Source of the DNA: a virus
Taxonomy: Duplodnaviria; Heunggongvirae; Uroviricota; Caudoviricetes
DNA: 64,000 nucleotides
Direction: 5' to 3' (one strand)
IMG/VR virus record: IMGVR_UViG_3300042286_000208
Span: 70,287-134,286 of that record
Position 1 is the stretch's first letter, and each line of letters begins with the position of its first letter. Below the pieces are notes generated by a model. It searched no databases, was not told the DNA's origin, and saw only the letters and a program-made list of their open reading frames with translations. The position numbers and the translations under genes were made by a program. Below are positions 741 to 62,354 of the stretch, piece by piece.

Positions 741-810
741 TATTATATATTATAACGATGTTAAAAGAAGATATTATAATAAATTAAACGAAAGGAAGAA
801 TATTAATATT

Positions 811-1428
811 ATGAAAATTCAACAAAAAACTTATGACAGAATTTTAGTTAATCTACATGCTGTCGAAACTATGTTCAACAGAGACAAAACTGAATACGAT
901 AAAGAAGATTTCAAAGAAGTATCTCGAGAAATGGGTATCAGTGTTTCCAGAATCAAGAGAGCTTATGAAAACTTATCTGAATTTGGTTTTGTAAACCTCA
1001 GTCTAGGAGAACTATCTAATGCAGAGATTGTTCCAAACAAACCTACAGTACAAAGAAGAGTTACTAGAAGAAATGTAACCAATACTTACATCAAGCGTAA
1101 AGATGAAGGATATGTAGAAGCAGCTAAACATATTATTCACGACAGAATCTTTACTAATATGACAGTACAAGAAATCGCAAACAGATGGAATTGTTCTAAA
1201 GGTAGAGTTAATAGTTTGGTATCTGAAGTTGCAAGATATGGAGCTATCAAGCTACCTAAGTTCAGAAAACATATACTAATTGATATTAGTAAATATAGAG
1301 ATGTAAATGTAAGAGATACAATTAATGCAATTAAGCATGATATCGAATACAATCATTCTCTAGAGAAAAAACTGAGACACAAGTTGTTAACGAAGGTTCT
1401 TAGAGAGGCTTTATCATTTAATGCCTAA
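811..1428 (+). CDS. hypothetical protein with two HTH-like segments; possible transcription regulator
   Basis: Segments [13 protein letters not shown] and [18 protein letters not shown] resemble helix-turn-helix. Confidence 0.4.
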
Positions 1429-1654
1429 GGATACTAGTCTAACATTTGAAGGAGTAGTTACCGGAATCCAGAAAACGTTCTATCTAATAGAAATTCAGGA
1501 TGTTCCAGCCCTTGAAGGAAAGCCTATCAGGGGCACTCTCTCCGGAAAAATGAGAATGAATAAAATAAGAGTTATCGTTGGCGACAAGGTTTCTGTTGAA
1601 TTAGACCCTTATGATTTATCTAAGGGAAGAATTGTTTATAGATCAAAAAATTAA
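1421..1654 (+). CDS. infA: translation initiation factor IF-1
   Basis: [36 protein letters not shown] aligns nearly residue for residue with bacterial IF-1 ([36 protein letters not shown]). Confidence 0.85.
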
Positions 1655-4745: not shown

Positions 4746-5279
4746 ATGAAATTAGTAATGGATACACAAGTTCGATTAACAGAATTCAAGACACCCTTAA
4801 AAAAGAAAATCTTTATCGAATCACTAAAGACAAAAAACAATTATATAGAACTAAATGATAAAACACTATTTATATGGGATTATTTAGGGGTATTGGATAA
4901 CGAAAGGGTGTTTGATTCATTCTGTCAAATAGACAACATTACTATATTATTGGACACCGAGACACAAATATTTGAAGCATATAGAGATGGTGTAAAAATT
5001 GACCACGTTATATTTAATGATATCATGAAGTGGATAAAAATAAAACATGATAATGATAAAAGAAGACTACTGAGAAAAATGAAAAAATTCAGAGAGGATT
5101 TTCTTGATCATAAATTAAAATATACGTATTATAGAGGTATATTCAGTGATAGATTTTCAGTATTCATGAAGGGCAAGGAGCTTCTTTTACCTGCTTGAAA
5201 TAAAGATGATGATATAACTCTTCTTGGAATGGAAGAGAATTTCAGTTTCTTTTTAAAATTATGTAAACTTGTTTTATAA
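4746..5279 (+). CDS. hypothetical protein (contains one in-frame TGA at 5196)
   Basis: Listed ORF 4746-5198 continues in frame through TGA to TAA at 5277-5279. Confidence 0.45.
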
Positions 5280-5292
5280 ATTTTATTATATT

Positions 5293-5322
5293 AAGAACAT
5301 ATATTTACTATGTTCTTTTTTT
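5293..5322 (+). terminator. rho-independent terminator
   Basis: Stem aagaacat/atgttctt with 9-nt loop followed by T6. Confidence 0.6.
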
Positions 5323-5335
5323 CCTTCATGTCCTT

Positions 5336-5351
5336 TGAATAATTAATTATA
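5336..5351 (+). promoter_or_regulatory. conserved motif TGAATAATTAATTATA (promoter class 1), copy 1
   Basis: Exact 16-mer present 6 times in the window, always intergenic and upstream of a gene; here 22 nt before ATG 5374. Confidence 0.6.
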
Positions 5352-5373: not shown

Positions 5374-6120
5374 ATGCCAACTATACACAAATGCCCTCTT
5401 TGTAGTTATTCATTCAAAGAAAAGACTAAGCTTTATGACCATATAAATTTTGAACATGGTGACGAATTACAAGGTTTATCTCCAGCACACCTATATTTCA
5501 ATTATAGAAATAGAGCAAGATATTCATTGTATAATATGTTTGGTAAATCTGTTGTTTCCAATAAACCCACTTTATTTGATGAGGTTACAGAAACATATCA
5601 AAGATTTGCTGATCAAGCAGATAAAGACCTAAATACAAAGATATTTGAAGCAAGAATGATGAAAGTTTATGGCAAGAAAAGATTAACAGACGATATTGAG
5701 AAACAAAGAGAAATGTTACACAATAGGTCAATCGCAGGAAAGTATATGTTTACAGATGGTGGTGAAGTTCCTTATATAGGATCATATGAAAGAAGATTTT
5801 TGGAACATCTTGATTTAGACTTACATATAAGTAGTAACGATGTGTTAGCAGACCCATTACAAATGGTCGTCAACTATGACGATAAAGGTGTTAAAAGACA
5901 ACATTTACCTGACTTTTACATCATACCTATGGAATGTATAATAAATATAAAAAACGACTCTAAGCCAAGAAGAGACCTAATTGAAAGAGAGTTCGCACAA
6001 GATAAAGCTATAGTAAACACCTTATTAAAAGGTAAAGGAAAAAATAGAAAGTATTTAAAAATAGTAGAAAATAATTTTAAAGAATTTGATAAGCTATTTT
6101 ATAAGATGAAGTCTGAATAG
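5374..6120 (+). CDS. C2H2 zinc-finger protein with possible PD-(D/E)XK nuclease-like C-terminal region
   Basis: N-terminal CPLCSYSF...HINFEH zinc finger; C-terminal LPDFYIIPMECIINIKND resembles restriction-endonuclease-fold motif. Confidence 0.4.
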   Translation: MPTIHKCPLCSYSFKEKTKLYDHINFEHGDELQGLSPAHLYFNYRNRARYSLYNMFGKSVVSNKPTLFDEVTETYQRFADQADKDLNTKIFEARMMKVYGKKRLTDDIEKQREMLHNRSIAGKYMFTDGGEVPYIGSYERRFLEHLDLDLHISSNDVLADPLQMVVNYDDKGVKRQHLPDFYIIPMECIINIKNDSKPRRDLIEREFAQDKAIVNTLLKGKGKNRKYLKIVENNFKEFDKLFYKMKSE

Positions 6121-11610: not shown

Positions 11611-13146
11611 TTGAAATTAGTTTATTACAATAAAGACAAAAGTGAATTTCACAAAAAGAACGGTGAGTTCCAAGGAAACGAAATAACAAAAGAAAAAGTA
11701 TTCGGTAGAGTTGATAATGATTTAGCCTCGCTAGAGTTTACTGATATTAAAAGAAAATCTTTTCAAAAGGGTTCGATATTAGATCCTAACATTTTTGGAA
11801 ACTTCATGATGACCTCCAACTATAGTTGTAAATGCGGTATGACAACTGGATGGGTCAATGAAGGATTAAGCTGCAACCACTGCAACACAACAGTATTACC
11901 AGTGGGTACGAATTTAGAACAATGGGGGTTTATAGATTTAGATCCTTTTCATATTATATCTTATCCCAAATACTTTATATTAGAAAAGATAATTGGAATA
12001 AATGTTCTAAAAAGTATAATTAGAAAAAGTGATTTAATTAACTTAGATGGACAGGCAGTTGAACAAGATGACGATGGAACTTTTAAGAGGTTAAATGACG
12101 CATACCTTCAAACAAAGTTAAAAAATCATAATTATAAAAATCTAGGGTTGAAGAATTTCTATATTTACTATGAAGATATCATTAACTTTTATGCTAGAAA
12201 ATATATATCGAAACAATTTAACGTTGAGCTACCTGATGAATGGTGTTTGTATGATTTCCTATCCGATCCTAAAAATGAAGGAAAAGACATGAATATGTTT
12301 AAATCAGTGGCAACAAAAGAAGACGTATTCATTGATAAAATAATCGTAGCACCAATATCATTAAGACCTATACATAGAACAAAAGATGGTATACAACAGG
12401 ATGAGATGGGAAACCTATATACAAAGATCGTTGCTGAAAAAGTAATTCTTGACGGACACGACCATGTTTTAGATTCTTATATTGAAGAAGCTTTACTGAC
12501 TATCCAATTAAAATATTTTGAATTAGCAAACTATATTGTTAAAGACAAATTGGCTGGAAAAGAAGGTTACATCAGAGATAAGATTAATGGTACTAAACTT
12601 AACTATACAGCTCGTTTAATCTTGTCACCCTCAGATGTATCCAAATATAATGTCGGGGACTGTATACTGCCTTATTTTGTTGCTGTAAACTTTTTAAAAT
12701 ATGAGATCATCAGTATATTATCTTCAATTAAGAACATCAACTACCAAAAAGCATTAGATTATTATACTTTACATCAATATGATTTCAATCAAGAAATATA
12801 TTTGATTATGAAGAAGATTATATCTGATAATGAGGTTGGTGTATTATTAAACCGTGCTCCAACATTGAACTACGGTTCAGTAGTTTATTTAAAATTTGCT
12901 GATATAAAAGACATTTATGAAGATCAAACCTTAGCTGTACATCCATTGACATTCTCATTATATAACGGTGATGTTGATGGAGACGTTGTTACTATCGTTT
13001 TACTTCATGATAAAGAGTTGATCGAAAAAATGAAAAATTCTTTAGGTGTAGAACAAATGTTAACAGATCCCAATAATGGTAAATTGTCTAAAAAACTAAA
13101 TATTAGCAAAGACATTTTATATGGTCTGTGGAAACTTATAGGGTAG
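11611..13146 (+). CDS. multisubunit RNAP beta-prime subunit, N-terminal fragment
   Basis: Zinc-finger CKCG...CNHC; LLNRAPTL matches beta-prime NRAPTLH; YNGDVDGDVV is the catalytic NADFDGD motif; ends at equivalent of beta-prime LGLYY; TTG start with RBS aaaggagg. Confidence 0.8.
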   Translation: MKLVYYNKDKSEFHKKNGEFQGNEITKEKVFGRVDNDLASLEFTDIKRKSFQKGSILDPNIFGNFMMTSNYSCKCGMTTGWVNEGLSCNHCNTTVLPVGTNLEQWGFIDLDPFHIISYPKYFILEKIIGINVLKSIIRKSDLINLDGQAVEQDDDGTFKRLNDAYLQTKLKNHNYKNLGLKNFYIYYEDIINFYARKYISKQFNVELPDEWCLYDFLSDPKNEGKDMNMFKSVATKEDVFIDKIIVAPISLRPIHRTKDGIQQDEMGNLYTKIVAEKVILDGHDHVLDSYIEEALLTIQLKYFELANYIVKDKLAGKEGYIRDKINGTKLNYTARLILSPSDVSKYNVGDCILPYFVAVNFLKYEIISILSSIKNINYQKALDYYTLHQYDFNQEIYLIMKKIISDNEVGVLLNRAPTLNYGSVVYLKFADIKDIYEDQTLAVHPLTFSLYNGDVDGDVVTIVLLHDKELIEKMKNSLGVEQMLTDPNNGKLSKKLNISKDILYGLWKLIG

Positions 13147-14241: not shown

Positions 14242-16299
14242 TTGAAGAAAAGTAAAAACAGAATACTGGGAGAAGAATTATTAGTACCGAGTGGAGCAAC
14301 CAGAGTCGATCCTTATCGACTAATAATGTGGGCTGCTAATACAAGTCAAATAGTTCCACTAAAAGAAACTGATATACCCCGTATATTTACAGGTTTTGAA
14401 AATCAAATTGGTGAGAGATCAAAAGGTATAGCTTATATTACAGCGCCACAATCTGGTAAAGTAATTAAGAGAATAGATAAATATCCTAATTCAGGATACT
14501 ATGATTTAATCATTGAGCTTGATGAAACAGTTAAAAAACCATTCACGAAGGATGGTAAGACAACACCAATGAACAAAAAGGCTTATACAGTTATTTCTGT
14601 AAGGCCAGTGAATAAATTAACAGAAAACTATGGTTATAAAATGAACACAATCAACAGTAAAGATGTCGGTGACGTGATCAAAAAAGACGAATTAATAGTC
14701 TCTTCTGCAGAATATGACGAGCAATTAAACATGAAATTTGGAAGAAACGCCATGGTTGCTTATAGTCCTTTTAATAATGGAACATTTGAGGATGCTATTG
14801 TTGTAAGTAAATCGTTTTCAGAAAAAATGACTTCTTATAAAGTTGAAAAGACGGTAGCTCTAGTTCCAGCAAATGCTATTTTGATTAATCACGAATCAAC
14901 ACAAAGAGCATTATGGAAAATAGGGGAACAAATTGACGATAACTTGATTTTAATATCAAGACCTTTAAACGACAATCTATTAGTGTCACTATCCAATAAT
15001 AATGCCATCAATGAGACCAGATATTCAGATAGAAAAACTTATACAAATGGTGGGAAAGTCGTAGATATAGAAATTTTCGCAAAAAGAGACCAAATCGAAG
15101 GATTCAAATCCAAAGGCGGATTCTATAAAGAAATATTGGATATTTACGAAATGAATAAAAAATACTACTTATCTATTATAAACACAATTGAAGAGTTAGA
15201 CCTATACCCAAGAGAATTGGATGAAAAAGGTAACCCAAATGGTAGATTTATCGATAAGGATAAACTTAAATTCTATACACATGTTGAATTGGATTTCTTA
15301 TATAAAGAAGCAAAGGAGTGGCTAAATGAAGATAGCGTATGGTTGACTGCGAAGAGTGAACCAATTAATACTATAGCATTAAGATATACTATTCTTAAAG
15401 AGGCTTCTTTGGAAACCGGTGGTAAACTTGTTGGTAGATATGGTGACAAGGGTGTTACGTCGATGATTATAAAAGAAGATGAAGAAATGCCTTACTTCTA
15501 TAATCATTTAGGTGAGAAAAGAAATATAGACGTATTCTTAAACGTGTTTGGTATATTCAACCGTGAAAATCCAAGTCAGTTATTTGAGCAACACCTGAGC
15601 TTCATATTAAATAACCTAGCTGATAAATGTAGAACTATGCAAGACATTACAGAAAGACAAAGTTATTTCTTCAGTGTTCTACAAACTTTAGATCGCGATT
15701 ATGGCAAATTTATGTTCGAAGAATACAAAACTCTATCTCAAAAAGATAGAGAGTTATTTTGGAAAGATGTATATGACTATAAATTTCCATTTGTCATGGA
15801 TCCGTTTGAATCAAGTATTAAATGGGATGATATTGTAGAAGTTCAGAAAGAATTCCCTGAGCTTTCAGAATTATATAAGATGGAAGACGGAAGAGAGATC
15901 GTTGCTGGAGATCGCTATATTGTTAGATTAAAACATGACTCTCAAAATAAATCTAGTGTTAGATCTACTGGTAAAAATGATATCGCTGGAAACTTGCCTA
16001 CCGATGGTAAGAAAGAAAGAAAAATTAAACAAGCATTGTTATCAGACAAATCAGCTAAATTCGGTGTAATGGAAAAACTAAACTTAGAGATATTGAATGA
16101 TCCTGATATTATCAGAAAATTCTATGCTATAAATAGCTTATCTCCAGAATCCAGAGTAGAGTTAGTGAAGGAAATCCTTGAAAGAGGGGAAGTATTTAGC
16201 ACCACTCTTGAAATTGATGAATTCCTAAAAGATAGTTCTAATAATAGAAAAGTATTAGATGCTTATTTAGATGTATTAAATCTAAAAATAGAAGATTAA
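14242..16299 (+). CDS. multisubunit RNAP beta subunit, C-terminal fragment
   Basis: RVDPYRLIMWAANTSQIVPL ~ beta NDANRALMGSNMQRQAVP; NNGTFEDAIVVS ~ NGYNFEDAI; GGKLVGRYGDKGVTS ~ GDKxAGRHGNKGV; NIDVFLNVFGIFNRENPSQLFEQHL ~ [22 protein letters not shown]. Confidence 0.8.
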   Translation: MKKSKNRILGEELLVPSGATRVDPYRLIMWAANTSQIVPLKETDIPRIFTGFENQIGERSKGIAYITAPQSGKVIKRIDKYPNSGYYDLIIELDETVKKPFTKDGKTTPMNKKAYTVISVRPVNKLTENYGYKMNTINSKDVGDVIKKDELIVSSAEYDEQLNMKFGRNAMVAYSPFNNGTFEDAIVVSKSFSEKMTSYKVEKTVALVPANAILINHESTQRALWKIGEQIDDNLILISRPLNDNLLVSLSNNNAINETRYSDRKTYTNGGKVVDIEIFAKRDQIEGFKSKGGFYKEILDIYEMNKKYYLSIINTIEELDLYPRELDEKGNPNGRFIDKDKLKFYTHVELDFLYKEAKEWLNEDSVWLTAKSEPINTIALRYTILKEASLETGGKLVGRYGDKGVTSMIIKEDEEMPYFYNHLGEKRNIDVFLNVFGIFNRENPSQLFEQHLSFILNNLADKCRTMQDITERQSYFFSVLQTLDRDYGKFMFEEYKTLSQKDRELFWKDVYDYKFPFVMDPFESSIKWDDIVEVQKEFPELSELYKMEDGREIVAGDRYIVRLKHDSQNKSSVRSTGKNDIAGNLPTDGKKERKIKQALLSDKSAKFGVMEKLNLEILNDPDIIRKFYAINSLSPESRVELVKEILERGEVFSTTLEIDEFLKDSSNNRKVLDAYLDVLNLKIED

Positions 16300-16738: not shown

Positions 16739-16754
16739 ATGAATAATTAATTAT
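16739..16754 (+). promoter_or_regulatory. motif TGAATAATTAATTATA, copy 2
   Basis: Exact 16-mer; followed by hairpin gcttccacc/ggtggaagc, then gene 16822. Confidence 0.55.
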
Positions 16755-16821
16755 ATCAGATAGCTTCCACCTTAATGATGGTGGAAGCATTTCTGGTTTA
16801 TTTAAAAAGGAGACAAACATA

Positions 16822-17175
16822 GTGTTTAAATTTAAAAGATTAAATATAAATCGTATAAAAGAAGATTTAGAAAAGATAGAGATATTGAACAATAAAGAAG
16901 ATAAAACGGAAGAGGATTTACTTGAGGGTCATAGAATATTTAGAGTTTTTTCTAATTTTATTAAATTAAATTATGGAAAGTTTAAAAGATTTAAAAAAGA
17001 AGATAGAAACATGTATGTTAATATTTATGACTGAACAGAAAGACAGAAAAGCGTAGTATCTTCAATAAGAAAAATTGGTTTTAGAGAAGTGATCGATGGC
17101 GATGAAGAAGAATCCGATTGGATCATTTACGAAGCCTGGCTTCTTGGTTATTTAATTGTAAAATATAAAAAATAA
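16822..17175 (+). CDS. hypothetical basic protein (in-frame TGA at 17032)
   Basis: Listed ORF 16822-17034 continues through TGA to TAA 17173-17175. Confidence 0.4.
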
Positions 17176-17187
17176 GGAGATCATACA

Positions 17188-17682
17188 GTGAGAATAAATT
17201 GTATTCCTGTAGAATATTTAACAGATCAACATTTAAGAGCGGAATGGGTGGAAATGCTCATGCTCCCAGCTTTCATGAAGAGAACACTAAAAGCAAAAGG
17301 TTATATTGATATTGACGAAAGTATCGTCTATAAATTAAACACGGGACACGCCAAATTTTTTTACAATAAATTAAAGTATGTCGAGAATAGATATAAACAA
17401 ATTCAAACAGAGATGAGAAGCAGGGGTTTTGAAGCCAATCCATCTTTAGATCTTAGTATGTTTCCTAAAGAGCTATTTAATAGCTGGAAACCTAGTAAGG
17501 AAGATATGAAAGTCAATGCGAACAGGATTTTGACCAGAATTAGTGAAAAACCGCTGTGGTATACTTTTTTTCAACTAGAAGAAAAGAATACAGGTTATCA
17601 ATTTGAAAAATGAGTGGAATTTTACGAAGAGTGGTTAGATTTTAAATACGAATTAAAAGAATCAGATTTAAAAAGAATTTAG
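17188..17682 (+). CDS. denV: pyrimidine-dimer DNA glycosylase (T4 endonuclease V, DenV-like); in-frame TGA at 17611
   Basis: RINCIPVEYLTDQHLRAEWVEMLMLP matches T4 endoV [27 protein letters not shown]; C-terminal EKPLWYTFF ~ QRPTWYKYY. Confidence 0.75.
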
Positions 17683-17693
17683 GAGAATATAAT

Positions 17694-17903
17694 ATGGAAT
17701 ATATCGAATTATCGGATGGTAGAGTTGGATACATTGAAAATCCAAATCATCCTAAATTTATAGAAGATTTAAAAAGAAATGGTCTAAGTTACAAAACAAC
17801 GACAGAAAATCATTATGCAAATTATATGATAATGACTAAATTATCACCTGAACAAATATATCGTCAAGTTGGCGGAAAAAAGAGTTTCGGAAATTGTTAT
17901 TAA
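17694..17903 (+). CDS. hypothetical small protein
   Basis: 69-aa ORF with RBS aggaga. Confidence 0.4.
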   Translation: MEYIELSDGRVGYIENPNHPKFIEDLKRNGLSYKTTTENHYANYMIMTKLSPEQIYRQVGGKKSFGNCY

Positions 17904-17918
17904 ATAAAGGAGAAAAAC

Positions 17919-18173
17919 ATGAAAATATTATTTAATTATTGCACTCAGTCTAGAAGATATGCTGATAGTTATGGAGAATGTTTAGTTCTCCTTGAAGAAG
18001 GCGACGATAAAGAAGAGATCAAAAGAGAATTCCATAAAGAGAGAGCTTGGTATGAACAAAGTTATTCTTTTGATAGAGAATGTAAGGAATATGTCGAGAA
18101 AAAATATAGTGGTGATGTTGTTCATACCGGCAATATGTTACTATTTAAAACTCGTAGAGCATATTTGGATTAA
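17919..18173 (+). CDS. hypothetical small protein
   Basis: 84-aa ORF with RBS aaggagaaaaacATG. Confidence 0.4.
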   Translation: MKILFNYCTQSRRYADSYGECLVLLEEGDDKEEIKREFHKERAWYEQSYSFDRECKEYVEKKYSGDVVHTGNMLLFKTRRAYLD

Positions 18174-18191
18174 ATGAAGGAAACCAAATAA

Positions 18192-18632
18192 ATGAAATTT
18201 TTACTATTGAGAACAGATCAAGTAAATCTAAACGGTAGAGTTTATCCAAAAGATTTAGTTACTGAAGTAATAAATGATGAAAATTTTCAAAAAAGATTAA
18301 GAAACAGAGAGTTATTGGGATACATTGGTCAGTCATCAAATGAGATGGAGAGAGACATCAGTAAAGCTTCTCACGTTTTAACCAATGTATATTTCGAAGG
18401 AAATGATTTAATTGGTGACGTAGACATTTTAGAAACACCCGAGGGAATGGCTTTACTAAGCTCTTTACGGGATGGAAGTATAGATTTTGGAATGGCATTA
18501 AGAGGATATGGGGATGTTGAGTGAAATGATAACAAAGAACAAGTAATAACAACTCTAAGTATATCTTCTTTTGATTATGTGTATAGACCATCCCATCTAG
18601 ATAAAAAAAATAAAAATTTAGAAAGAGAATAG
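18192..18632 (+). CDS. possible prohead protease (HK97/S78-like); in-frame TGA at 18522
   Basis: Weak resemblance to prohead protease core (ASHVL..., GMALLSSLRDGSIDFGMAL ~ LVKRGDLNGVSFGF). Confidence 0.3.
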
Positions 18633-18642
18633 GTAAAACAGA

Positions 18643-19746
18643 ATGAAAAAATTATTCACATTGATGCTAGTTTTACTACTAGCTATTGCATTAACTGGTT
18701 GTGTTCTTGATGAAACTGACCCAGACAACACAGATCCTATAATCAACACACCAATATATACCGTAGCTTTTGACTCAGACGGTGGTAGCGTTGTAGAACC
18801 GTTAACCGTGGAGGAAGGAGATATGATAAGCAGGCCACAAATTCCAATGAAAAAAGGATATATGTTTGTTTATTGATATTCAACAAATCCAGAAACAGAA
18901 TATGATTTTACAACAATAATAACAAACAGCATTACCCTTACAGCTTTATGAGAAGAGATTGATTATTCTTATGATATCAACGATATTCCAGAAGAAATAC
19001 AATACTATTTAGGCGAATCTAGCTTCAATCATATAAGCGATTGGATTATAAGCGATGATAATTTAGATGGAGAAATATCTGAAGAAGAAATACTGTCTGG
19101 TTATGAACTAGTGGATGAGATGTTTGGTGGATATGATCATAATGTAGTTTTAAATTCGGAAGATTTATCTGATATGCAATGGTGTATTGACGGAAGCATG
19201 GATCAAGAATATATTGATGCTGCGATTTATGCCATTTCTTATTTTAATGGTATTGAATGGGTTAACGCATCTTATATTATTGAAGATGATTTTGAAAACA
19301 ATTGCTCTTCTTATAAATTTACATTTACTTGAATAACAGTAGAAGACTTATATGATGAGTTGTATGATTCATATATTTATGAAGGTTATGATGAGGATTT
19401 AGCTCATCAAATGGCTATGGACTTTTCAATGGGAGCTATTGCATTTAATAGTTTGGGATTAGATTATGAAAACGAAGACTATTATCATTACGGAAGTACT
19501 GGTATATATTTTATATTTGAGGCGATGGAAGAGTTAACTCAAACAGAAAAGAACTTTGTTGCTCTACATGAAATGGGGCATAGTTTTGGTCTAGATGATA
19601 TTTATGACATTGAATTTGCTGGATATACTTTAATGTTTGGATCAGCAGAAGGACAAGATGAATTACTTCCTATTTTGAGACCATTTGATTTATGGAATTT
19701 AAACTATATTTATAATAATACCGAAGAGGAAGAAGTAGTAGAATAG
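18643..19746 (+). CDS. lipoprotein with Listeria-Bacteroides (Flg_new) repeat and HExxH zinc-metallopeptidase motif; 4 in-frame TGA
   Basis: Signal peptide plus lipobox LTGC; PIYTVAFDSDGG...GYMFVY(W)YSTNPETEYDFTT...ITLTAL(W) fits the Flg_new repeat with TGA at both invariant Trp positions; HEMGHSFGLDD; listed ORFs 18643, 19111 and 19360 share one frame with no TAA/TAG between. Confidence 0.65.
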
Positions 19747-19770
19747 AAGATAAAATAAGGAGATGGAATA

Positions 19771-20181
19771 ATGAAAATATCAGAATTTATTGAAGCAGAA
19801 AAAGTCACTAAAGATGATATAATTATCTTTAAAGTAGATATAGATATGTTTAAGGATAATGACTTATATTCAGGTATGATGTCTGTAATAAATGAAACTA
19901 AAGAATTTTTACAAAAACATGAAATTCAAGCATTATATATTCCATATAAAAATGGTATAGAGGTTGAAATTTCAAATGATATAACAGAAGAGGGATTAAA
20001 AAAAATATACAACGAAAAACAAAGCACAGAAGGATTCAGAGATGGTTTTATAAAGGCATTATCTGATAGTGATGAAAAATTAGAATATGATGATTCACAT
20101 CCCACAAAGAGCGAAATTTATAGTGAAAATTATAAATTAGCATATAAAATGGCATGGGAACATAGAAATGAGGAGAATTAG
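19771..20181 (+). CDS. hypothetical protein
   Basis: 136-aa ORF with RBS aaggagatgg. Confidence 0.45.
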   Translation: MKISEFIEAEKVTKDDIIIFKVDIDMFKDNDLYSGMMSVINETKEFLQKHEIQALYIPYKNGIEVEISNDITEEGLKKIYNEKQSTEGFRDGFIKALSDSDEKLEYDDSHPTKSEIYSENYKLAYKMAWEHRNEEN

Positions 20182-20182
20182 A

Positions 20183-21226
20183 ATGAGAAAACAGTTGACA
20201 GTAGTAATACCTCAATACTCAGAAACACCTGATATGATTGAGTCTACACTAATGAGCATCAAACATCAAGTTGGATATGACTTAAATAAGATCGAGTTAA
20301 TTATCGTAAATGATTGTGGTCCTTCTGAATTAACACCAGAGAATCTCGCTCATATGCGATTATCATTCGATGTTAAGTTTGAAAAAACGCCTGTTAACTC
20401 AGGCCCCGGAGTCTCACGTCAGCATGGGATAGATTTAGCAGAAGGCGAATGGGTGGTTTGTATCGATGCAGATGATATATTTGCACCAGATGCATTTGCT
20501 AGCTTCCAATTTTCCTTAGATCAAAACCCAAACTTGAAATGGATTAATTTCAGCGGAAAAGTTGTTGGATTAGAGAACCAAAGAGCAGTTATTCAAGATC
20601 ATAGATCAGAATTAGTTTGGTCTTTTGGTCATTTTATTAATACAGACTGGCTAAGAAGAAAGAAAGTCAAATATCACCCAGAAATCAGATCAAACGAGGA
20701 ACAAGTGTTCTTTCAAGCATTATGGGCAAGAACTAAACCTCAATTAGAATTCGCACATGTTGAATATCCTGTTTATTACTGGGATCAAAAATCAACCAAC
20801 ACCATCACTAGATATAATGGTGGAGAATATAGTAGAACTTGTGTTCCAGAATTCTTTAAAGGAAGAAATATTGTATTAGATGATCTAGATTCTCTAGGGA
20901 AGAAAGATGAGCTAATTCAATTAGCATACGGATCAGTAGTACATGGTTACTACACAGTTCACCAAACTATTTTTGATGATTATCCAGAGTGGAAAAAGAA
21001 TTCAGAAGAGTGGATTGGATGGATACTCGGGAAATATGGTGATTTGATCAATATGTTGGATGAAAGATATCGCTTACAAGTTTTATTACAAGGAGCAGTA
21101 TCTTGTGATAGACAAGTTCCCATTACATTTGATAAGTGGACACAAAAGGTAACAAGAACAGAAGAACCTAAAAAATGCCTACTTCCTAAGGAAGATATGG
21201 ATAAGTCCAAAAATAGGCCAGAATAA
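20183..21226 (+). CDS. family 2 glycosyltransferase (GT-A fold)
   Basis: LTVVIPQYSE...DCG...CIDADD (DxD) motifs; ATG 20183 after RBS aggaga. Confidence 0.65.
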   Translation: MRKQLTVVIPQYSETPDMIESTLMSIKHQVGYDLNKIELIIVNDCGPSELTPENLAHMRLSFDVKFEKTPVNSGPGVSRQHGIDLAEGEWVVCIDADDIFAPDAFASFQFSLDQNPNLKWINFSGKVVGLENQRAVIQDHRSELVWSFGHFINTDWLRRKKVKYHPEIRSNEEQVFFQALWARTKPQLEFAHVEYPVYYWDQKSTNTITRYNGGEYSRTCVPEFFKGRNIVLDDLDSLGKKDELIQLAYGSVVHGYYTVHQTIFDDYPEWKKNSEEWIGWILGKYGDLINMLDERYRLQVLLQGAVSCDRQVPITFDKWTQKVTRTEEPKKCLLPKEDMDKSKNRPE

Positions 21227-21280
21227 GTAGGGAGGATAAACTTCCTCCCTCAATCATTATACCAAGGAAGGAGGGATTAT

Positions 21281-22669
21281 ATGTTTTCAAAATCAGAATA
21301 CGGAAAATACCTCGAAGGTTTAACAGACGGTCAAAATGTTGCATTTCATATGATAACAGAGTGACTTTTTAACTTTTATTCTCTAGATATAGAAAAAAGA
21401 AGAGATAAACAAGTCTTTGTGTTATCAGGATATGCTGGAACAGGTAAATCTTACCTCATGGGCATAATAGACAAGTTTTTAAGAGAATATTACAGAAACG
21501 ACATGGCTGTTCAAGCATGTGCATATACAGGTAAGGCAAGCACAGTCTTGGCTGAAAAGAATATGAATTCTACGACACTACACCATTTATTATACATACC
21601 AATGGTAAAAGAGACTAACGGTATCAAAAAGGTTATTTGGAAAAGACGTGGTAATTTAGATGATAGAGTTAAACTAATCGTAGTTGATGAATCTTCTATG
21701 ATGCCTTCAAAACTATTCGAAGATTTAAAACTATTGAAACTTCCTATATTAGTTGTTGGTGATGGATTTCAACTACCATCAATAGATGTTGGAACCAATC
21801 TTCTAGATAATCCCGATTATACCTTAACAGAGATCACTAGACAAGCATTAGATAATTCAATTATTAGATTATCAATGTTAGTTAGAGATGGTGGAGAAAT
21901 ACCATATGGTGATTATGGCGATAACGTTCAAGTAATCTCAAAAAGAGGACTTTATGCCGGAGATTATATAGAAATAATGAATAACTATGATCAACTCCTA
22001 GTTGGAACAAACAGGAGTAGGCTATATTACAATACTCTATATAGACAACATTTACTAGGTGAACATTACGATAATAACCCACTTCCGTGTGTAGGAGAAA
22101 AAGTAATTATAACCCAAAATAATTGAGATTTTGAAATTGATGAGGCAGGGGAATACAATCTATTTAATGGACTTGTAGGTATAGTCGAGGATGCCGAGTC
22201 GACAAATATGGAAGAAATTGATAGAATAAAAATAAAAATTAATTTCGGCAAAAAAGAGTATATAACTGATTGATTTATATATGATACCGGTATTTTCAGA
22301 GAGGCACTAGATAATTCTATAAGGAGACCTTATTTTGAAAATGATGTATTGGCTTTAGTAGATGAAAATGGTAAATATTTAATTAAAAAAGAGATCAGTG
22401 AATATAAAAAAATGAGTCGTGAAGAAAAAATGGAATATATTGATATAATGTATAATTCCACTTTTGATTTCATGAATCAAGGGATAAAAATTAATCAATT
22501 AGATTTCGGATATGCAATATCTGTACATAAGTTTCAAGGAAGTGAGGCAGACAATGTTTGTGTTATAGATGAAAGTTATGTGTTTGATAGGGACGAGACC
22601 GAGAACAAAAATAGATGGCTATATACGGCCATAACAAGAGCAAAAAAATTCTTGTTACTAATTAAATAG
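21281..22669 (+). CDS. dda: Dda/RecD-like SF1 DNA helicase; 3 in-frame TGA (21362, 22124, 22271)
   Basis: N-terminal LTDGQNVAFHMITEWL ~ T4 Dda LTEGQKNAFNIVMKAI; Walker A GYAGTGKS; DEAD-like VVDESSM; C-terminal VHKFQGSEADNVCVIDES and TAITRAKK motifs; three listed ORFs stitched in one frame. Confidence 0.8.
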
Positions 22670-22682
22670 ATAAGGCGGTATT

Positions 22683-23141
22683 ATGAAAATTATAAACGGA
22701 GATTTATTAAACGTAAAAGAAGGAATAATTTGTCATCAAGTGAATACATATGGAATAATGGGAGCCGGATTGGCACTCAGTTTAAAAAATAAATTTCCAA
22801 ATGTGTATAAACAATATAACGAACATTGTCGTATAAACAAATGTGATGAACGAACTTTACATGGAAGTGTATTATATGTATATGCCACTAATAAACTTAT
22901 AGTTGCAAATGTATTTAGTCAATTATCCTTTGAAACAGACTTATCAAGAAGAACTGATCTGTCTCTAATATGAATGGCTTTTGAAGACATTTTTAAAATA
23001 GCAGATCAAGAGAATCTAAATATATACATACCTTATAAATATGGTTGTGGCCTAGCGGGTGGTGACTGAAATAAAGTGAGTCAAGTATTTTTAGATTTGG
23101 AGAAAAAATTTGGAAAAGAAATTATAGCATTAAAGATATAG
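22683..23141 (+). CDS. macro-domain protein (ADP-ribose binding/processing); in-frame TGA at 22971 and 23067
   Basis: MKIINGDLLNVKEGIICHQVNTYGIMGAGLALSL matches macro-domain N-terminal motifs; GCGLAGGD(W) phosphate-binding loop. Confidence 0.65.
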
Positions 23142-23150
23142 GAGGGCTAT

Positions 23151-23453
23151 GTGTTAAATCAAGTAATTTTAGTCGGTAGAATATCCGATATAATCAAAAA
23201 AAATGGTTGTATTATTTCTATGAGAGTAAATGTGACCAGAAGAAATGATGATAAAACAATAGATAGACCGAAGGTTGCCTTACCAGAGGCAATGGGTAGA
23301 AGTTTATTTGAAAAAATAAAAGATAAAGATGGCGTGATGATTGGTGTTAAGGGAAGAGTAGAAACAGAATTAAAAGGTAGATATGGAACCATATCTAATA
23401 TAGTTGCAGAAAAAATCACATTACTAGAAGATGACACCCAATCAAATGAATAA
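23151..23453 (+). CDS. OB-fold SSB-like protein
   Basis: MLNQVILVGRISDI...GVKGRVETE pattern of short SSB-like OB fold. Confidence 0.45.
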   Translation: MLNQVILVGRISDIIKKNGCIISMRVNVTRRNDDKTIDRPKVALPEAMGRSLFEKIKDKDGVMIGVKGRVETELKGRYGTISNIVAEKITLLEDDTQSNE

Positions 23454-23462
23454 TTAATTATA
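23447..23462 (+). promoter_or_regulatory. motif TGAATAATTAATTATA, copy 3
   Basis: Exact 16-mer overlapping stop of 23151-23453; 24 nt before ATG 23487. Confidence 0.55.
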
Positions 23463-23486: not shown

Positions 23487-25100
23487 ATGCAAGTAGAAGC
23501 TAATAAAGAATTTGTGTTCCTAAACCAACATGTTGGAACTTTCTATACTGGTATAAGTTCCATATTAGGACAGGTGAAGGAATATATACTAAATCAATTT
23601 CCTCAGGAGTTTTTTAAGAGAGTTACAGTAGAAACTGCAGCACCATCTTCACTTACAAATCAGAATATGCAAGATGGTTTAGTAAAAATGTATTATCCTT
23701 TTTTAAATATTGGGGTAAACATTCCTCATGAATATGAAGAAAAAACAACAAGACCTTTATTAGAACGTTCTGAATTATTTATACAGCCTCTTATAAGACA
23801 AAATTACCCAAGAGTCTTGATTGACCCAGATGATAATTTTACTGTAGGTTTTACATATGAATGAGTAAAATCTTCTTATGATTTCAGAATAACGACAAAT
23901 ACCTTTATGAACTCCATAGATGTGATGAACTGAATAAGAACTAAACTTCCACTAAATTTCATAGGATATTTAAATGATTCTCCTTTGGAGTTTGAATTAC
24001 CTCAGAGTATTGTTAAAACAATAGCAGAGCTTCAGGGATATGATTTAATGACAAAGGAAGGTGTTAAAAATCTTGATAGATATTTAATGTCTGTAGGTAG
24101 GATGTTTTCCTTAATTAAAAGAAAAACAAGTGCTACATCAGGTCAAGAGTCCTATTTCATGTCTATAAATTCAGACATTCAAGTATATATAGACAATCTA
24201 GATGCTCCGACTTCAGTTGTTAGAAGTGGTCACACCGAGGGCGAGTATGTTGTAAGTTTTACTGTTACAACAGGAGCATATTTTCCTGTTAGCTATTTAA
24301 TGAAAATAAGAAAAGATTATTTAGTTGCTAGAGTAGAACAAAAAGACTTTCTGGATATCTATGATACACCTAATCAACCACTTGTTGATGGACTGATTTC
24401 AATAGGTGTGGATATTCCTTTAGCGAACAAGAAAGATATTATAAACTACACTACATCGGATGGGAAAAAAGCAATAGGCCACTTGGTTGATGAATGAAGA
24501 TTCGTATACGGGTCCGAACAAACAGAACCACCTATTGTTTCAATCTTCAGCTTAATCGATGATCCAGAATTAAAAAGAGTTCATGCTTATGCAGTAGAAC
24601 ATAGTATTAATCTAGAAAATCTTTTTCATTTTGAAGGATATAAGGTGGCATACACCCAAGATGATATCAATTTTGTCATGAACTATGAAGATTTTGAAAT
24701 CAATATAGAAAACGCTGAATTTAGTGAGGTTTTGATAAGGTTCTATGTAAATAGAGCAACCTATGATGCACTTCAGTTTGCTATGGAGACAGATACTTAT
24801 TACTTTAATAAGAACGTACTGTGTTTCACAGATGTTATTTTATGGGACAGTAAGACAAACATGAATGTCACTAAGAAAGTACAAGTTAATTTCTTTAAAG
24901 ACTCGATTGAAATGTACGATGAAAACCCATTGAAAGCTCTTAAGATCGTAACAAAATATGGTTATGGATATCTCAATATCAAGCCATATGTTGAAGATCC
25001 AGACAGAGAAGATGATGTGATGTTAGTGGTTCTTGGTTATGAGAGCAAGTTGATAGATGGGAAACCTGTTCCAATACTTTATGAAATAATTTTCTCATAA
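23487..25100 (+). CDS. hypothetical 537-aa protein; 3 in-frame TGA (23862, 23931, 24495); possibly virion structural
   Basis: Listed ORFs 23478, 23985 and 24645 share one frame; intervening sequence re-translated with no TAA/TAG. Confidence 0.45.
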
Positions 25101-25204: not shown

Positions 25205-25732
25205 TTGGATTTATTAAAAAATGAACAAATACCTAGTGGGTTATACACGCTTATTGACATTGACAGAACGAATTTAGGTGTCAAACCAATAGCAAAGATC
25301 AGAGAGATTTGCGAGGAAAACGAATATGATTGTGTTTTAGTCAATTCTAATGTTAGACCTGGTATTGTTAAACTCGAAGAGCGTATGGATGAAAGTAAAA
25401 GAAAATATCAAGAAGCCAAAAACGCGAAAAAGAATAAACAAAAAGAAATAAAATCTAAATCATATACAGTGGATAAACCATTAACCATCCAAGAAAATGA
25501 TTTAAACAGAAAAATGAACGAAGTAATAAATGCAGTTAGAAAGAATTATTCAGTAACTTTTACATTTAAAGCCATGGGAAGATATGCAGATCAACATCAC
25601 TGGAAAGATGTAGTGAAAAGATTTGATACATGTTATGATTATATTATGAGTCATGAAAACATAACTTCTCAAACAAGAAAAGAAAATGAAAATACTATTT
25701 ATGCTGTCTTTAGATATACAACAAAAAAATAA
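25205..25732 (+). CDS. infC: translation initiation factor IF-3
   Basis: N-domain IDIDRTNLGVKPIAKIREICEENEYDCVLVNSNVRPGIVKL ~ IF-3 [42 protein letters not shown]; C-domain KEIKSKS...TFTFKAMGRYADQHHW ~ KEIKFRP...TLRFRGREMAHQQ. Confidence 0.7.
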   Translation: MDLLKNEQIPSGLYTLIDIDRTNLGVKPIAKIREICEENEYDCVLVNSNVRPGIVKLEERMDESKRKYQEAKNAKKNKQKEIKSKSYTVDKPLTIQENDLNRKMNEVINAVRKNYSVTFTFKAMGRYADQHHWKDVVKRFDTCYDYIMSHENITSQTRKENENTIYAVFRYTTKK

Positions 25733-25748
25733 AGGGGATTTATAAATT

Positions 25749-26474
25749 ATGGATGAATCAAATAAAAAGGGAACGTATTCATTTGGTATTGAAGTAAACG
25801 GAGACGAAAGAGTTCAATATCTAGAACCGAGTGAGGGACAAGATAAATTTAGAAACAGAATTTACATTAGTAAAGCAAAAACGATGGAAGATATTCTAAA
25901 AGAAGTAGATTCATTTTGTACAAAGTACTATAAGGCAAGTGAACATGGAGTTAGTGCAGATATGATAGATGTCTTCAAAGATTTCAATAAAGTGTATCAC
26001 GCATTAAGAAACCTAACGAAATCCGATGGAAGGAAAATAAGAGGTTTTGAAAAGATAGAAAAATATGGGGATGTTAATATTCCTAAAAGAGGGACCAACA
26101 AAAGTGCCGGTTACGATATCGAATCTATAGAAGATGTTGATATAGAACCAGGAACAACTAAAGTGGTTTTAACTGGATTAAAAGCATATATGATGGATGA
26201 TGAAGTTCTAAAATTATATATAAGATCATCTTTAGCAATAAAAAAAGGCTTGACTTTAGCAAACAACGTAGGTATAATAGATGCAGACTACTATAATAAT
26301 CTGTCTAATGAAGGACATATTATGGTGGCACTAACAAACCTCTCAGATTCAACAGTAACCATCAAAAAAGGTGATAGAGTAGCCCAGGGTATATTTGTTA
26401 AGTATCTAACAGCAGACGATGATCAAACTCTTTCAAGCGAGAGAATTGGTGGAATTGGTAGTACAAATATTTAA
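25749..26474 (+). CDS. dut: dUTP pyrophosphatase
   Basis: dUTPase motifs GYDIESIED, TGLKAYMM, IIDADYYN, C-terminal GGIGSTN; about 90-aa N-terminal extension. Confidence 0.7.
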   Translation: MDESNKKGTYSFGIEVNGDERVQYLEPSEGQDKFRNRIYISKAKTMEDILKEVDSFCTKYYKASEHGVSADMIDVFKDFNKVYHALRNLTKSDGRKIRGFEKIEKYGDVNIPKRGTNKSAGYDIESIEDVDIEPGTTKVVLTGLKAYMMDDEVLKLYIRSSLAIKKGLTLANNVGIIDADYYNNLSNEGHIMVALTNLSDSTVTIKKGDRVAQGIFVKYLTADDDQTLSSERIGGIGSTNI

Positions 26475-31099: not shown

Positions 31100-31269
31100 A
31101 TAATACCTCCTTTCATCTAGCTGTTATCTTTGTTATCTCTTATTTCTCCTATTTTTCGACCTAATTCAATTAGTAATTTGTTTGTGAACATTAAATAAAA
31201 TATATCCCGATATTATTGAACAGGTTCTCACACCCGTCTGATTTATACTAAAGATAAACCATTTCTTAT

Positions 31270-31499
31270 ACTTTCATATAAGCGTAGACTATATCATCAT
31301 CTCTTTCGAGAGCAGCTTACTTCGGGAAATGAGATTTCTTTCCCTACTCCCTTACGGGATAGTCGTTGGGGCTGGAACTTAGAAAGATCCCTGCCTGCTG
31401 ATTGCCCAATCTCTCAACTTTTCAAACCATGGCTTCGACTCACGTCTCGCAGTGGTATGAGAGCTCTAAGGGGTTTCCAGCATATCAAGCTGTTTTAAC
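31270..31499 (-). ncRNA. group I intron-like catalytic core (P4/P7 elements) on the minus strand
   Basis: Minus-strand CAACGACUAU (plus 31359-31368) matches R element GUUCAACGACUA; GAUAUAGUC (plus 31287-31295) matches S element AAGAUAUAGUCC; the GACUA/UAGUC halves pair as P7; CAAUCAGCAGG (plus 31390-31404) resembles Q element AAUCCGCAGC. Confidence 0.5.
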
Positions 31500-34400: not shown

Positions 34401-35651
34401 TATTGCGATTGGGGTGTGTGATAATTCTTTTAGTCTTATATCATTAGCAGCTCTTTGATCTATTTGTTCTTCTATAGATGAGTATTTTTCTACATCTACT
34501 TCTGGTAATTTTTTGAATTCATTATATAGAATTTCCATTTCTTCAGCTACATTTTCTTCTGCCTTTAATATGTTTTGTGACTCTTTTTTCTTAAGACCAG
34601 CATATCTTGTAAGATTGGCCTTTATGGTTGGATCCTCTATCAGTTTATCAACTTCAATTTGACCACTGTCTTCTCTTCTCTTTATGTTCTCTACGATGGA
34701 TAAATATATATTGTCTTGTGGATCAGTATTCGGTTCCACTTCAACGTTTTTAATTTTATTCACTTCATAGAATTTTTTAACTACCTCTTCGAATTTAGTT
34801 TCTACAACAATATCTTTAGAATCAAGGGTTTTATCATTGATTGCATCTTCTTCGCTATACACTTCATCTTGTGAAAGAGGCTCTTGTCCTTTACCGCCAA
34901 GCTTGTATAACTTAAAAAGTCTTTGCATATGTTTGCTTTTTAGTTCATTTATGTCAATGTTATCTAGATCAAATTTAATCATAGAGTGAACTTTAGTGTT
35001 ATAAAAAACAACATATTTTATACCTCTGAAGAAGGCTTCTCTTGTTCCTTCGTCATAATTTCAAAAAGCTTTTGTTATTATTGTCGCAGGATCTACTAAG
35101 AATTCTGTATCACCAACAAAACTTCTTTTTCTTACAAGAATGTGGAAATTGTCTACAGACCCATCATAAGGAACAACCAATATATTGTTTAAATACCCTG
35201 CGTTTTCTATAGATTCTTTTAGCATAGTGAAAAGATATTGAGAGATATACTGTGTTGATCTTGGATTTTCTCCTCTTAATTTCTCTACTAATTCTATAGT
35301 CTGTCTTCACTCATTATTAAAATCATATATAAGGTTTTTATTGCTATATGCCAATATATTTTTACGACCTAAATTTATTTTCTTATTTGTTTTTGAGAAT
35401 ATGTCGTTATAATATTCTTTTAGAGGAATAACAACACGTCTTCTTTTCATAGGAGTAATTCTGAATGGTGTATAAATAGATTTGATATTAGCTCCTCTTA
35501 AAAGTTTAGAATTGATAACATCAATCATAGTTTGCTCTTTTAAGCTAGGTATTAAAATCAAATTGTCCTTATTTTTGTTTTGTGTTTCGAAAAATATAGT
35601 CGGATTCTTATAAACAAGACCATTTCTCGCTTTTGAAAGTTTTAAAATCAT
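31500..35651 (-). CDS. multisubunit RNAP beta subunit (second copy, N-terminal plus middle regions, about 1383 aa); 5 in-frame TGA
   Basis: Listed ORFs 35307, 34143, 33315 and 31536 are one frame joined by TGA at 35307, 35061, 34143, 33315 and 31536; motifs IPKIIDNHFLYLNGNR(W)TVDNQ ~ NGTERVIVSQL; DASRQSMTIGQFKHNMPL ~ NDANRALMGSNMQRQAVPL; APIDNSFEDSTII ~ NGYNFEDAI; IGDKLSYDTALKGVISNVL...VLTPTGVFSRMTH ~ GDKMAGRHGNKGVISKI...VLNPLGVPSRM; ends 12 codons later at TAG 31500 with no C-terminal 250 aa. Confidence 0.7.
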
Positions 35652-35672: not shown

Positions 35673-35688
35673 TATAATTAATTATTCA
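35673..35688 (-). promoter_or_regulatory. motif TGAATAATTAATTATA, copy 4 (minus strand), upstream of RNAP beta gene
   Basis: Reverse complement of plus-strand tataattaattattca; 22 nt before ATG 35651. Confidence 0.55.
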
Positions 35689-36268: not shown

Positions 36269-36274
36269 AAATTG

Positions 36275-36300
36275 GATGGTTATATACCATTCTTTTTTTG
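36275..36300 (+). terminator. terminator hairpin plus T7 tract
   Basis: ggatggtt-atat-accattc followed by tttttttg. Confidence 0.5.
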
Positions 36301-36312
36301 TCTGTTTTTCAT

Positions 36313-36328
36313 TGAATAATTAATTATA
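36313..36328 (+). promoter_or_regulatory. motif TGAATAATTAATTATA, copy 5
   Basis: Exact 16-mer 31 nt before ATG 36360. Confidence 0.55.
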
Positions 36329-44433: not shown

Positions 44434-44465
44434 GGGAAGATATAAATCTTCCCCTCGTTTTTTTA
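44434..44465 (+). terminator. rho-independent terminator
   Basis: gggaaga-tataaa-tcttccc followed by T8. Confidence 0.6.
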
Positions 44466-44477
44466 TTAATATTCGCT

Positions 44478-44493
44478 TGAATAATTAATTATA
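44478..44493 (+). promoter_or_regulatory. motif TGAATAATTAATTATA, copy 6
   Basis: Exact 16-mer 48 nt before ATG 44542. Confidence 0.55.
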
Positions 44494-61474: not shown

Positions 61475-61503
61475 TTAAAAGTTAAAAAATAAATAGTATA
61501 GAA

Positions 61504-61545
61504 TAGGGAATCTTCGATCAGATTCCCTATGATACTGTTTTACTT
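61504..61545 (+). terminator. terminator hairpin tagggaatc/gattcccta plus T-rich tract
   Basis: 9-bp perfect inverted repeat followed by tgatactgttttactttaatc. Confidence 0.5.
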
Positions 61546-62345: not shown

Positions 62346-62354
62346 TTGACTTAT

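Follow-up and report, generated by a model that had tools for sequence, protein, structure and literature searches.

What reads a 16-nt word that recurs unchanged in front of the genes of a phage, and what do the genes behind it have in common? This question is raised by TGAATAATTAATTATA (hereafter the 16-mer), found in a 64,000-nt stretch of virus DNA (the window; positions 70,287 to 134,286 of IMG/VR record IMGVR_UViG_3300042286_000208). The window has a GC content of 30.7%, encodes homologs of the RNA polymerase (RNAP) beta and beta' subunits of the jumbo-phage type, and is assigned by its sequence to an uncultivated jumbo phage, distant kin of Bacillus phage AR9/PBS1. An initial annotation had noticed the repeated word and suggested a promoter for a phage-encoded RNAP. 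That suggestion is now backed by the position and orientation of the copies, by their conservation amid diverged flanks and by a near-identity to the AR9 late consensus, and we consider it likely that the 16-mer is the late promoter of the non-virion RNAP (nvRNAP), with a transcription start site (TSS) predicted at motif position 14. Going beyond the initial annotation, we find that the long open reading frames (ORFs) it called structural require TGA to be read as tryptophan, that it is precisely these genes to which the motif is linked, and that a separate, AR9-like early motif is present in the same genome.

Copy number, boundaries and conservation of the 16-mer

The window holds six exact copies of the 16-mer (5336+, 16740+, 23447+, 35673-, 36313+ and 44478+; Table 1), the second of which starts one base later than the 16739 first given. 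As the initial annotation had held, this number is not due to chance: dinucleotide-preserving shuffles predict 0.01 copies, and none of 100 shuffles reached six. Copies with one or two mismatches are absent from the window, and when up to three mismatches are allowed the 12 matches (six of them with exactly three) equal the chance expectation of 12.07. To extend the count, which the initial annotation had proposed doing genome-wide, we assembled 142 kb of the same genome, which remains incomplete: the window, 69 kb of the 124-kb IMG/VR contig 3300042286_000220, whose end is 100% identical to the window's last 127 nt, and the extension of Logan contig L123, which matches the window's first 11.4 kb at 100% identity and runs 9.2 kb further upstream. 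These 142 kb contain 28 exact copies, two copies with a single mismatch (at motif positions 1 and 3) and essentially none with two. Because the minimal AR9-like pattern AAYA-N6-TA occurs 611 times and AAYAAWTAATTA only 30 times, 28 of which are the full 16-mer, recognition appears to be all-or-none; a degenerate family of the 16-mer, or one of canonical AACA-type promoters, was sought in this genome and no such family was found. Information content falls to background one base beyond the 16-mer, except for a preference for T immediately upstream. The invariance across the 16 positions is partly circular, as the sites were collected by exact match, and the independent evidence for it is the absence of near-matches.

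The copies are consistently placed with respect to genes, all of them facing one downstream. A ribosome-binding site (RBS) and a start codon follow 10-129 nt downstream in 25 of the 26 copies tested (three of these 25 ORFs being shorter than 90 amino acids), and for two further sites, on L123, the next called gene begins 20 and 33 nt away. Within the window, all six copies face an RBS and start codon in the orientation that the initial annotation had described, at 22, 66, 24, 21, 31 and 48 nt in order. Its statement that all are intergenic holds for five, the copy at 23447 overlapping the stop codon of the ORF 23151-23453; its remark that several directly follow a terminator is borne out by a hairpin and T-run directly upstream of 5336, 36313 and 44478. 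The flanks of the six copies are unrelated in sequence, and from the upstream terminator to the RBS, which can be as close as 4 nt, nothing is conserved besides the 16-mer. Some of the copies in the 142 kb stand back to back as divergent pairs, and there is one tandem pair.

The same exactness is seen among close relatives, whose nvRNAP beta proteins are 75-95% identical to that of the window (L001, L002, L003, L124, L127): in these five, orthologous sites keep the exact 16-mer amid diverged flanks. The site of copy 1 is exact in L002, L003 and L124, each time with differing flanks; that of copy 2 is exact in L127; and homology between the window and L001 starts precisely at the motif at 23447. 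Natural variants are confined to the edges, namely A16 to C at the copy 2 site of L003 and L128 and T1 to A in L078.

Outside this group, a near-identical or close DNA relative of the window was not found among GenBank phages, and an IMG/VR protein-pattern scan with the window's nvRNAP beta protein gave no match. The sole match in genome collections, a 2.7-kb contig binned with a Spirochaetaceae metagenome-assembled genome (MAG), is uninformative on the host. One relative, L002, corresponds to 848-870 kb of a 1.26-Mb contig (NCBI FZPS01000205.1), a location that may be informative about the host, or about whether the phage is carried or integrated. Most single matches to the 16-mer in IMG/VR are chance matches in AT-rich contigs. 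In four very AT-rich, unrelated contigs labelled as giant-virus MAGs (L007, L112, L079, L083) the 16-mer does stand upstream of genes, with no RBS after it. There it overlaps AAAATTGA, which we take to be the mimivirus early-promoter word, and its presence looks like convergence or chance, not homology.

The register of the AR9 late promoter and the polymerase genes

The initial annotation had proposed a comparison with the AR9 and phiKZ consensuses, and the 16-mer proves a near-match to the AR9 late promoter, while it is unlike the AR9 early and phiKZ late ones. The AR9 late promoter, AACA-(6N)-T-A/G(+1), is read on the template strand by the nvRNAP holoenzyme with gp226 (PMC5312081, PMC5449584, PMC9209446). 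From 84 AACA-containing mapped late promoters in the accessible part of AR9 Table S3, we derived the majority sequence AACAA(A/T)TAATTA, its last A being +1. With +1 set at position 14, the 16-mer spans -13 to +3 and reads AATA-ATTAAT-TA, the sole register within it in which a six-nt spacer is followed by T(-1) and A or G(+1). All 28 copies have AATA instead of AACA at -11 to -8. As far as that part of the table goes, the spacer ATTAAT also equals the AR9 majority bases, and between -11 and +1 the 16-mer departs from the AR9 majority or co-majority base only at -9, with T in place of C.

A distant relative provides the connection between the two. L120/L121, whose nvRNAP beta is 32% identical to the window's and of which 22 kb were examined, has eight copies of [CA]GAACAAT[TCG]AATTATA, just upstream of genes and often after T-runs. 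This sister motif, [CA]GAACAATNAATTATA, carries AACA in the same register as the 16-mer; because it thus holds AACA-(6N)-TA, that is, the AR9 late consensus, it ties the 16-mer to the AR9 late promoter. An earlier idea, a generic late promoter unlike that of AR9, was dropped on the strength of this motif and of the register in the accessible Table S3 data. The predicted start fits the available spacing as well. In L047 the Shine-Dalgarno sequence begins 4 nt past the motif, and therefore the TSS must lie within the motif or at most 3 nt after it, which agrees with position 14; and the 5' untranslated regions (UTRs) predicted in the window, 24-69 nt, are inside the range of AR9 late UTRs in that part of the table. 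Altogether, the 16-mer is very probably a longer and stricter relative of the AR9 late promoter and a distinct variant of it, with T(-9), 16 fixed positions and, probably, thymine DNA.

The genome encodes subunits of the kind of enzyme that such a promoter would require. The nvRNAP beta C-terminal subunit, a gp105-like subunit and a further RNAP-subunit homolog, which its weak Pfam match suggests to be beta', are separate genes (Table 1), as in a split-subunit nvRNAP; a gene for a single-subunit RNAP was not seen in the genome beside these multisubunit homologs. The "second RNAP beta gene" of the initial annotation is real: the 1383 codons at 31500-35651 (-), with five in-frame TGA, are the ortholog of AR9 g189, the virion-RNAP beta gene, which is late in AR9. 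We considered that this gene might be cut by an intron after "SRMTH" and rejected the idea, since AR9 g189 stops at the same point, with the same Hef-like endonuclease gene after it (tblastx); the end after "SRMTH" is best read as a natural subunit boundary. Downstream of it, a ~300-nt element (31206-31497) is 77% identical to an insertion in L002 (11244-11561) that splits the L002 nvRNAP beta gene just before the GDKG motif. The element looks like a mobile, intron-like one, and an Rfam search of it did not call a group I intron.

The genes behind the 16-mer are of the kind expected for a late promoter. On the adjoining contig it precedes three virion structural protein families, the large terminase and a prohead protease. 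Overall, the motif stands upstream of virion, packaging and virion-RNAP genes, and of some DNA-repair genes too. In AR9, g189 and g233, the counterparts of the genes behind copies 4 and 1, have mapped late promoters. These associations support the non-virion (late) RNAP, rather than the virion (early) RNAP, as the polymerase that would read the 16-mer.

The difference at -9 falls on a position of known importance. The AR9 nvRNAP strictly needs G at -9 of the template strand, held by gp226 residues Y210, F261 and Y263, and also needs template U(-11) and U(-10), a V206G change in gp226 admitting thymine (PMC9209446). The two sister lineages differ at the very base that AR9 gp226 reads via specific hydrogen bonds, which would amount to a natural specificity switch. 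Here a genuine dUTPase is encoded (25749-26474), so the phage DNA probably contains thymine, not uracil; AR9's uracil marking of its own short promoters would then not be usable, and the discrimination of U from T would have to be solved otherwise than in AR9.

A second motif and the decoding of TGA

A k-mer count in the window revealed another motif, TTATATATTAT, in 10 exact copies where chance predicts 0.69; in seven of the nine plus-strand sites the seventh base after it is G. The AR9 early promoter, used by the virion RNAP, is AAATATATATTAT-(6N)-G(+1) (PMC5312081), a pattern that the 16-mer lacks. The motif of this window, TTATATATTAT-(6N)-G, differs very little from that promoter and would be an AR9-type early promoter; we refer to its sites as class 2 and to those of the 16-mer as class 1. 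Class-2 sites head the genes for nvRNAP subunits, both DNA polymerase B halves, a DnaB-like helicase, SbcCD, RNase H, dUTPase and guanylate kinase, none of which has an in-frame TGA.

Class-1 genes differ sharply in this respect. Under translation table 11, the 984-aa and 537-aa genes break into several same-frame pieces and are open only with TGA as a sense codon (six and three TGAs). The initial annotation described both as putative structural proteins; the 537-aa protein (23487-25100) has a weak similarity to the phiR1-37 structural protein g272, and the 984-aa protein (36360-39314) has no detectable homolog. Likewise, a phosphoesterase gene does lie behind copy 6, and its reading needs TGA 44590, between the RBS-linked ATG and the catalytic GDSHIG motif, to be read through. 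The zinc-finger (ZnF) nuclease behind copy 1 stands as annotated. Counted over first genes, in-frame TGA is found behind class-1 sites in 17 of 27 (46 TGA, 36 TGG) and behind class-2 sites in none of 14 (0 TGA, 44 TGG), a split of TGA and TGG with a Fisher p of 7e-12. The exceptions behind class-1 sites are genes with few or no Trp codons, plus two long TGA-free genes. Examples of in-frame TGA in the window are at 44590, 23862, 23931, 24495, 22124, 22271 and 37482; the large terminase has seven; and a public gene caller read through these codons on the identical contig.

Comparison with L001 identifies the amino acid. At six aligned TGA positions, two (22124 and 22271) are TGG in L001 and the other four are kept amid synonymous changes; on this exchange, TGA is therefore read as coding for Trp, as in genetic code 4. 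With TGA taken as sense, all curated window genes end in TAA or TAG, two genes with a 3'-terminal TGA (4746-5279 and 17188-17682) being ambiguous cases. In these two genes, the second denV-like, the only TGA lies near the 3' end (5196 and 17611), and the one at 17611 stands about 10 codons beyond what we take to be the end of similarity to T4 endonuclease V. Both could be standard-code stops that are later read through, giving two protein lengths. The distant relative L120 uses the standard code, TGA being the stop of four of its 25 genes, and the recoding is therefore younger than the promoter family.

Judged by these assignments, class-1 genes are the only ones in the genome with in-frame TGA; because of this, late transcription and the code change would be wired to the same set of genes. 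As for the decoding machinery, at least 13 tRNA genes are present, including tRNA-Trp(CCA). On L066 (5100-5173 (-)), tandem 16-mers at 5557 and 5473 (-) precede a short ORF and a tRNA cluster comprising Trp-CCA, Ile (two genes), Thr, Asp, Phe, Gln and Arg. A UGA suppressor tRNA (anticodon UCA) was sought with ARAGORN and Rfam and none was found in the 142 kb of this incomplete genome; among code-4 phages, Borges et al. (bioRxiv 10.1101/2021.08.26.457843) detected such a tRNA in just 35%.

From the homology of motifs and polymerases we infer a scheme for initiation, the enzyme, its start and the timing. Early in infection, the injected virion RNAP would read TTATATATTAT-(6N)-G and produce TGA-free mRNAs, including those of the nvRNAP. 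The nvRNAP, a product of these early genes presumably paired with a gp226-like subunit, would then bind TGAATAATTAATTATA and start at the A of motif position 14. The late transcripts would cover virion, packaging, virion-RNAP and some repair functions as well as tRNAs, and the mRNAs among them would need UGA to be read as Trp. The long invariant word may here supply the specificity that AR9 draws from its uracil mark. We also put forward, tentatively and at a little under an even chance, that the late genes are under a double lock of promoter class and genetic code, with the late tRNA cluster and the replacement of the uracil mark by the promoter as parts of it: genes with early promoters would be readable in a standard-code host and those behind the 16-mer translatable only after decoding has changed, so that one polymerase switch would raise both the late mRNAs and, through the tRNA-Trp cluster, part of the means to read them. 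In any case, the two motifs divide the genome cleanly into TGA-free and TGA-containing genes, which gives an explicit transcriptional frame to the proposed mid-infection code switch. For annotators, the 16-mer would be a simple marker of late operons and of the translation table to be used. A putative late promoter here stands out in the bare sequence, and each of its bases can be set against the consensus mapped in AR9.

Table 1. Predicted promoters, hairpins and RNAP-subunit genes of the window (TSS, predicted transcription start site; positions are those of the window)
Feature	Position	Strand	Remarks
16-mer (class 1), copy 1	5336..5351	+	predicted TSS A at 5349; ZnF/DUF7487 endonuclease gene 5374-6120
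16-mer, copy 2	16740..16755	+	predicted TSS 16753; heads operon 16822-23141
16-mer, copy 3	23447..23462	+	predicted TSS 23460; 537-aa gene 23487-25100, 3 in-frame TGA
16-mer, copy 4	35673..35688	-	predicted TSS 35675; virion-RNAP beta gene (N-terminal part) 31500-35651 (-), 5 in-frame TGA
16-mer, copy 5	36313..36328	+	predicted TSS 36326; 984-aa gene 36360-39314, 6 in-frame TGA
16-mer, copy 6	44478..44493	+	predicted TSS 44491; metallophosphoesterase gene 44542-45414
Terminator-like hairpin and T-run	5295..5322	+	immediately upstream of copy 1
G+C-rich hairpin, then T-rich tail	16763..16788	+	begins 8 nt past copy 2
Terminator-like hairpin and T-run	36274..36299	+	directly upstream of copy 5
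Terminator-like hairpin and T-run	44434..44464	+	directly upstream of copy 6
Class-2 motif TTATATATTAT-(6N)-G, AR9-type early (putative), example	743..753	+	
Class-2 motif, other starts	6166, 25103, 29560, 40250, 51134, 54308, 59107, 61167	+	
Class-2 motif, other start	2228	-	
Class-2 ATATATATTAT variants	~10130 and ~35719		
nvRNAP beta C-terminal subunit	14242-16299	+	~29% identical to AR9 g089; TGA-free
gp105-like nvRNAP subunit	27588-29546		matches PDB 7S00 chain c (AR9 nvRNAP beta subunit), E = 5.5e-19
RNAP-subunit homolog, possibly beta'	11611-13146		PHROG label beta; orthologs in L001-L003 and L129 have a weak Pfam RNA_pol_Rpb1_2 match

Several other features of the neighbourhood deserve mention. 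The operon headed by copy 2 contains denV-like, prohead-protease-like, Dda-like helicase and macro-domain genes, several of them with in-frame TGA. Copy 2 itself comes after the nvRNAP beta gene. The hairpin that follows it is kept in four relatives, among them L003 (~11895), L128 (~3735) and L127 (~3375), with a different loop or stem sequence; it may terminate the early operon that lies upstream, from a place past the late start, or act as an attenuator. Domains resembling IF1/eIF-1A, the IF3 N-terminus and, weakly, PTH2 are encoded at window 1421-1654 and 25205-25732 and at L123 5073-5387, which is of interest in a phage that alters decoding. The family B DNA polymerase is split over adjacent ORFs, an exonuclease part (40403-42424) and a polymerase part (42454-44427) separated by 29 nt. 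A reverse transcriptase (RT)-like gene (62346-63533; PHROG "polymerase"/RT) is preceded by ~870 nt (61475-62345) without a convincing ORF; a repeat of the diversity-generating retroelement (DGR) type was sought within 12 kb of it and not found. In the distant relative L120, an RVT_1 gene adjoins the nvRNAP beta gene.

Rival readings and known systems

Several observations weigh against a late nvRNAP promoter. With T(-9) in place of the C that gives the template G required by AR9 (PMC9209446), the AR9 enzyme itself would not read the 16-mer. The specificity subunit is also missing from our searches: tblastn with AR9 gp226 gave no homolog in the 142 kb of the incomplete genome or in the relatives, and a hidden Markov model (HMM) built from 16 homologs of more than 400 aa (of 18 matches) gave none in the ORFs of the same set, a result that is indecisive. 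PDB searches with four early proteins gave only the gp105-like subunit as a candidate, and the contig of the most distant gp226 database match, L126 (22% GC), was set aside as another lineage. In addition, genes that are not classic late ones stand behind the 16-mer (Dda-like helicase, denV, macro-domain, phosphoesterase), as do the two long TGA-free genes, and the strong hairpin with a T-run that copy 2 has within 8 nt downstream is not what one expects of a promoter. The central 12 nt of the 16-mer, ATAATTAATTAT, form a perfect palindrome, more usual for the site of a dimeric DNA-binding protein, and the 205-aa product of an early gene (811-1428) has two helix-turn-helix (HTH) regions, one of them a Sigma70_r4 match (36 bits, above the Pfam cut-off); this protein may be a phage transcription factor able to bind such a site.

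These last two points are the basis of an alternative in which the 16-mer binds an activator or repressor, for example the 811-1428 protein, and the true promoter is a weaker signal nearby. We consider it unlikely. The asymmetric ends (TGA at 5', A at 3') vary no more than the core does, and every copy is oriented with its gene; the palindrome is lost in the L120 sister motif, in which position 9 is T, C or G and positions 5 and 14 are an unpaired C and A; no weaker signal is conserved from terminator to RBS, at spacings that can shrink to 4 nt; and the register equals that of the AR9 late promoter base for base. The palindrome does not make an N4-like hairpin promoter either, since, as judged from its letters without folding, it gives at most a 4-bp stem of A·T pairs only. 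A host RNAP promoter of the extended -10 kind (TG-AATAAT), used through the housekeeping sigma or a phage sigma, is quite improbable. TGAATAAT does resemble TGnTATAAT, with the key A(-11) and T(-7) and a predicted start also near position 14-16, but TG stands directly against the hexamer, with no canonical spacer between them, the hexamer lacks its first T, and upstream of the motif only a T at -1 is preferred, with no conserved -35 as sigma-70 would need. The eight 3' positions are invariant although sigma-70 has no need of them, the sister motif has CG or AG in place of TG, the region shows no excess of generic sigma-70-like sites, and the homologous AR9 promoters are read by the nvRNAP, not by the host enzyme (PMC5449584, PMC7598289).

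Marginally less probable again is an early promoter for the injected virion RNAP. Like the 16-mer, the published early promoters of such phages are long and AT-rich words that hardly vary, and sequence analysis has so far found no other type (PMC7598289); however, it is the separate motif, with its (6N)-G start, that fits the AR9 early consensus and stands before the nvRNAP and replication genes, while the 16-mer heads virion, terminase and virion-RNAP genes, whose in-frame TGAs a standard-code host could not read when the phage enters. Finally, one copy moves with a homing-type endonuclease gene (at 5374 in the window, after nvRNAP beta in L001), as would a mobile-element or homing-target footprint spread through the genome with no role in transcription. 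We give this the least credence of all, because similarity ends sharply at 16 nt with unrelated flanks, orientation and distance to start codons are fixed, and the downstream genes belong to many unrelated families. The late nvRNAP promoter thus remains the reading that we favour.

Set against known systems, the 16-mer is closest to the AR9/PBS1 late promoters. It shares their register and, within the accessible AR9 data, nearly the same bases (majority AACAA(A/T)TAATTA(+1) in AR9, AATAATTAATTA here), their genomic role upstream of virion and virion-RNAP genes, including the g189 and g233 orthologs, and the same set of polymerase genes, with a split beta and a gp105-like subunit. It departs from them in having T where AR9 needs C at -9, in being invariant at all 16 positions (-13 to +3) where AR9 fixes about six, in lacking a family of degenerate sites in its genome, and in that AR9 has uracil-marked DNA whereas thymine DNA, with a genuine dUTPase, is probable here. 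AR9 early promoters are similarly AT-rich, highly conserved and intolerant of mismatches, but their sequence is unlike that of the 16-mer, and the AR9-like early motif of this genome is a separate one, on the TGA-free gene set. The phiKZ late promoter, T(-3)ATG(+1), is likewise tied to a homologous non-virion RNAP and overlaps the start site; it is, however, a 4-nt element without upstream conservation, and the 16-mer has no TATG. Promoters of T7-like single-subunit RNAPs (~23 nt, near-identical copies) are also many identical long words spanning the start, whereas this genome encodes multisubunit beta/beta' homologs instead. On the side of the genetic code, the closest parallel is with code-4 recoded phages (Borges et al.), in which recoding is concentrated in structural and lysis genes; shared traits are in-frame TGA in a single class of genes, replication genes without it, no use of TGA as a stop, and a low GC content. 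The recoded-phage preprint (bioRxiv 10.1101/2021.08.26.457843) reports this same gene-class split and mentions neither promoters nor RNA polymerases, and a literature search returned no paper linking stop-codon recoding with phage promoters or RNA polymerases. What sets the present phage apart from these is that its two gene classes are bounded by two explicit promoter motifs, in a jumbo phage with two RNAPs.

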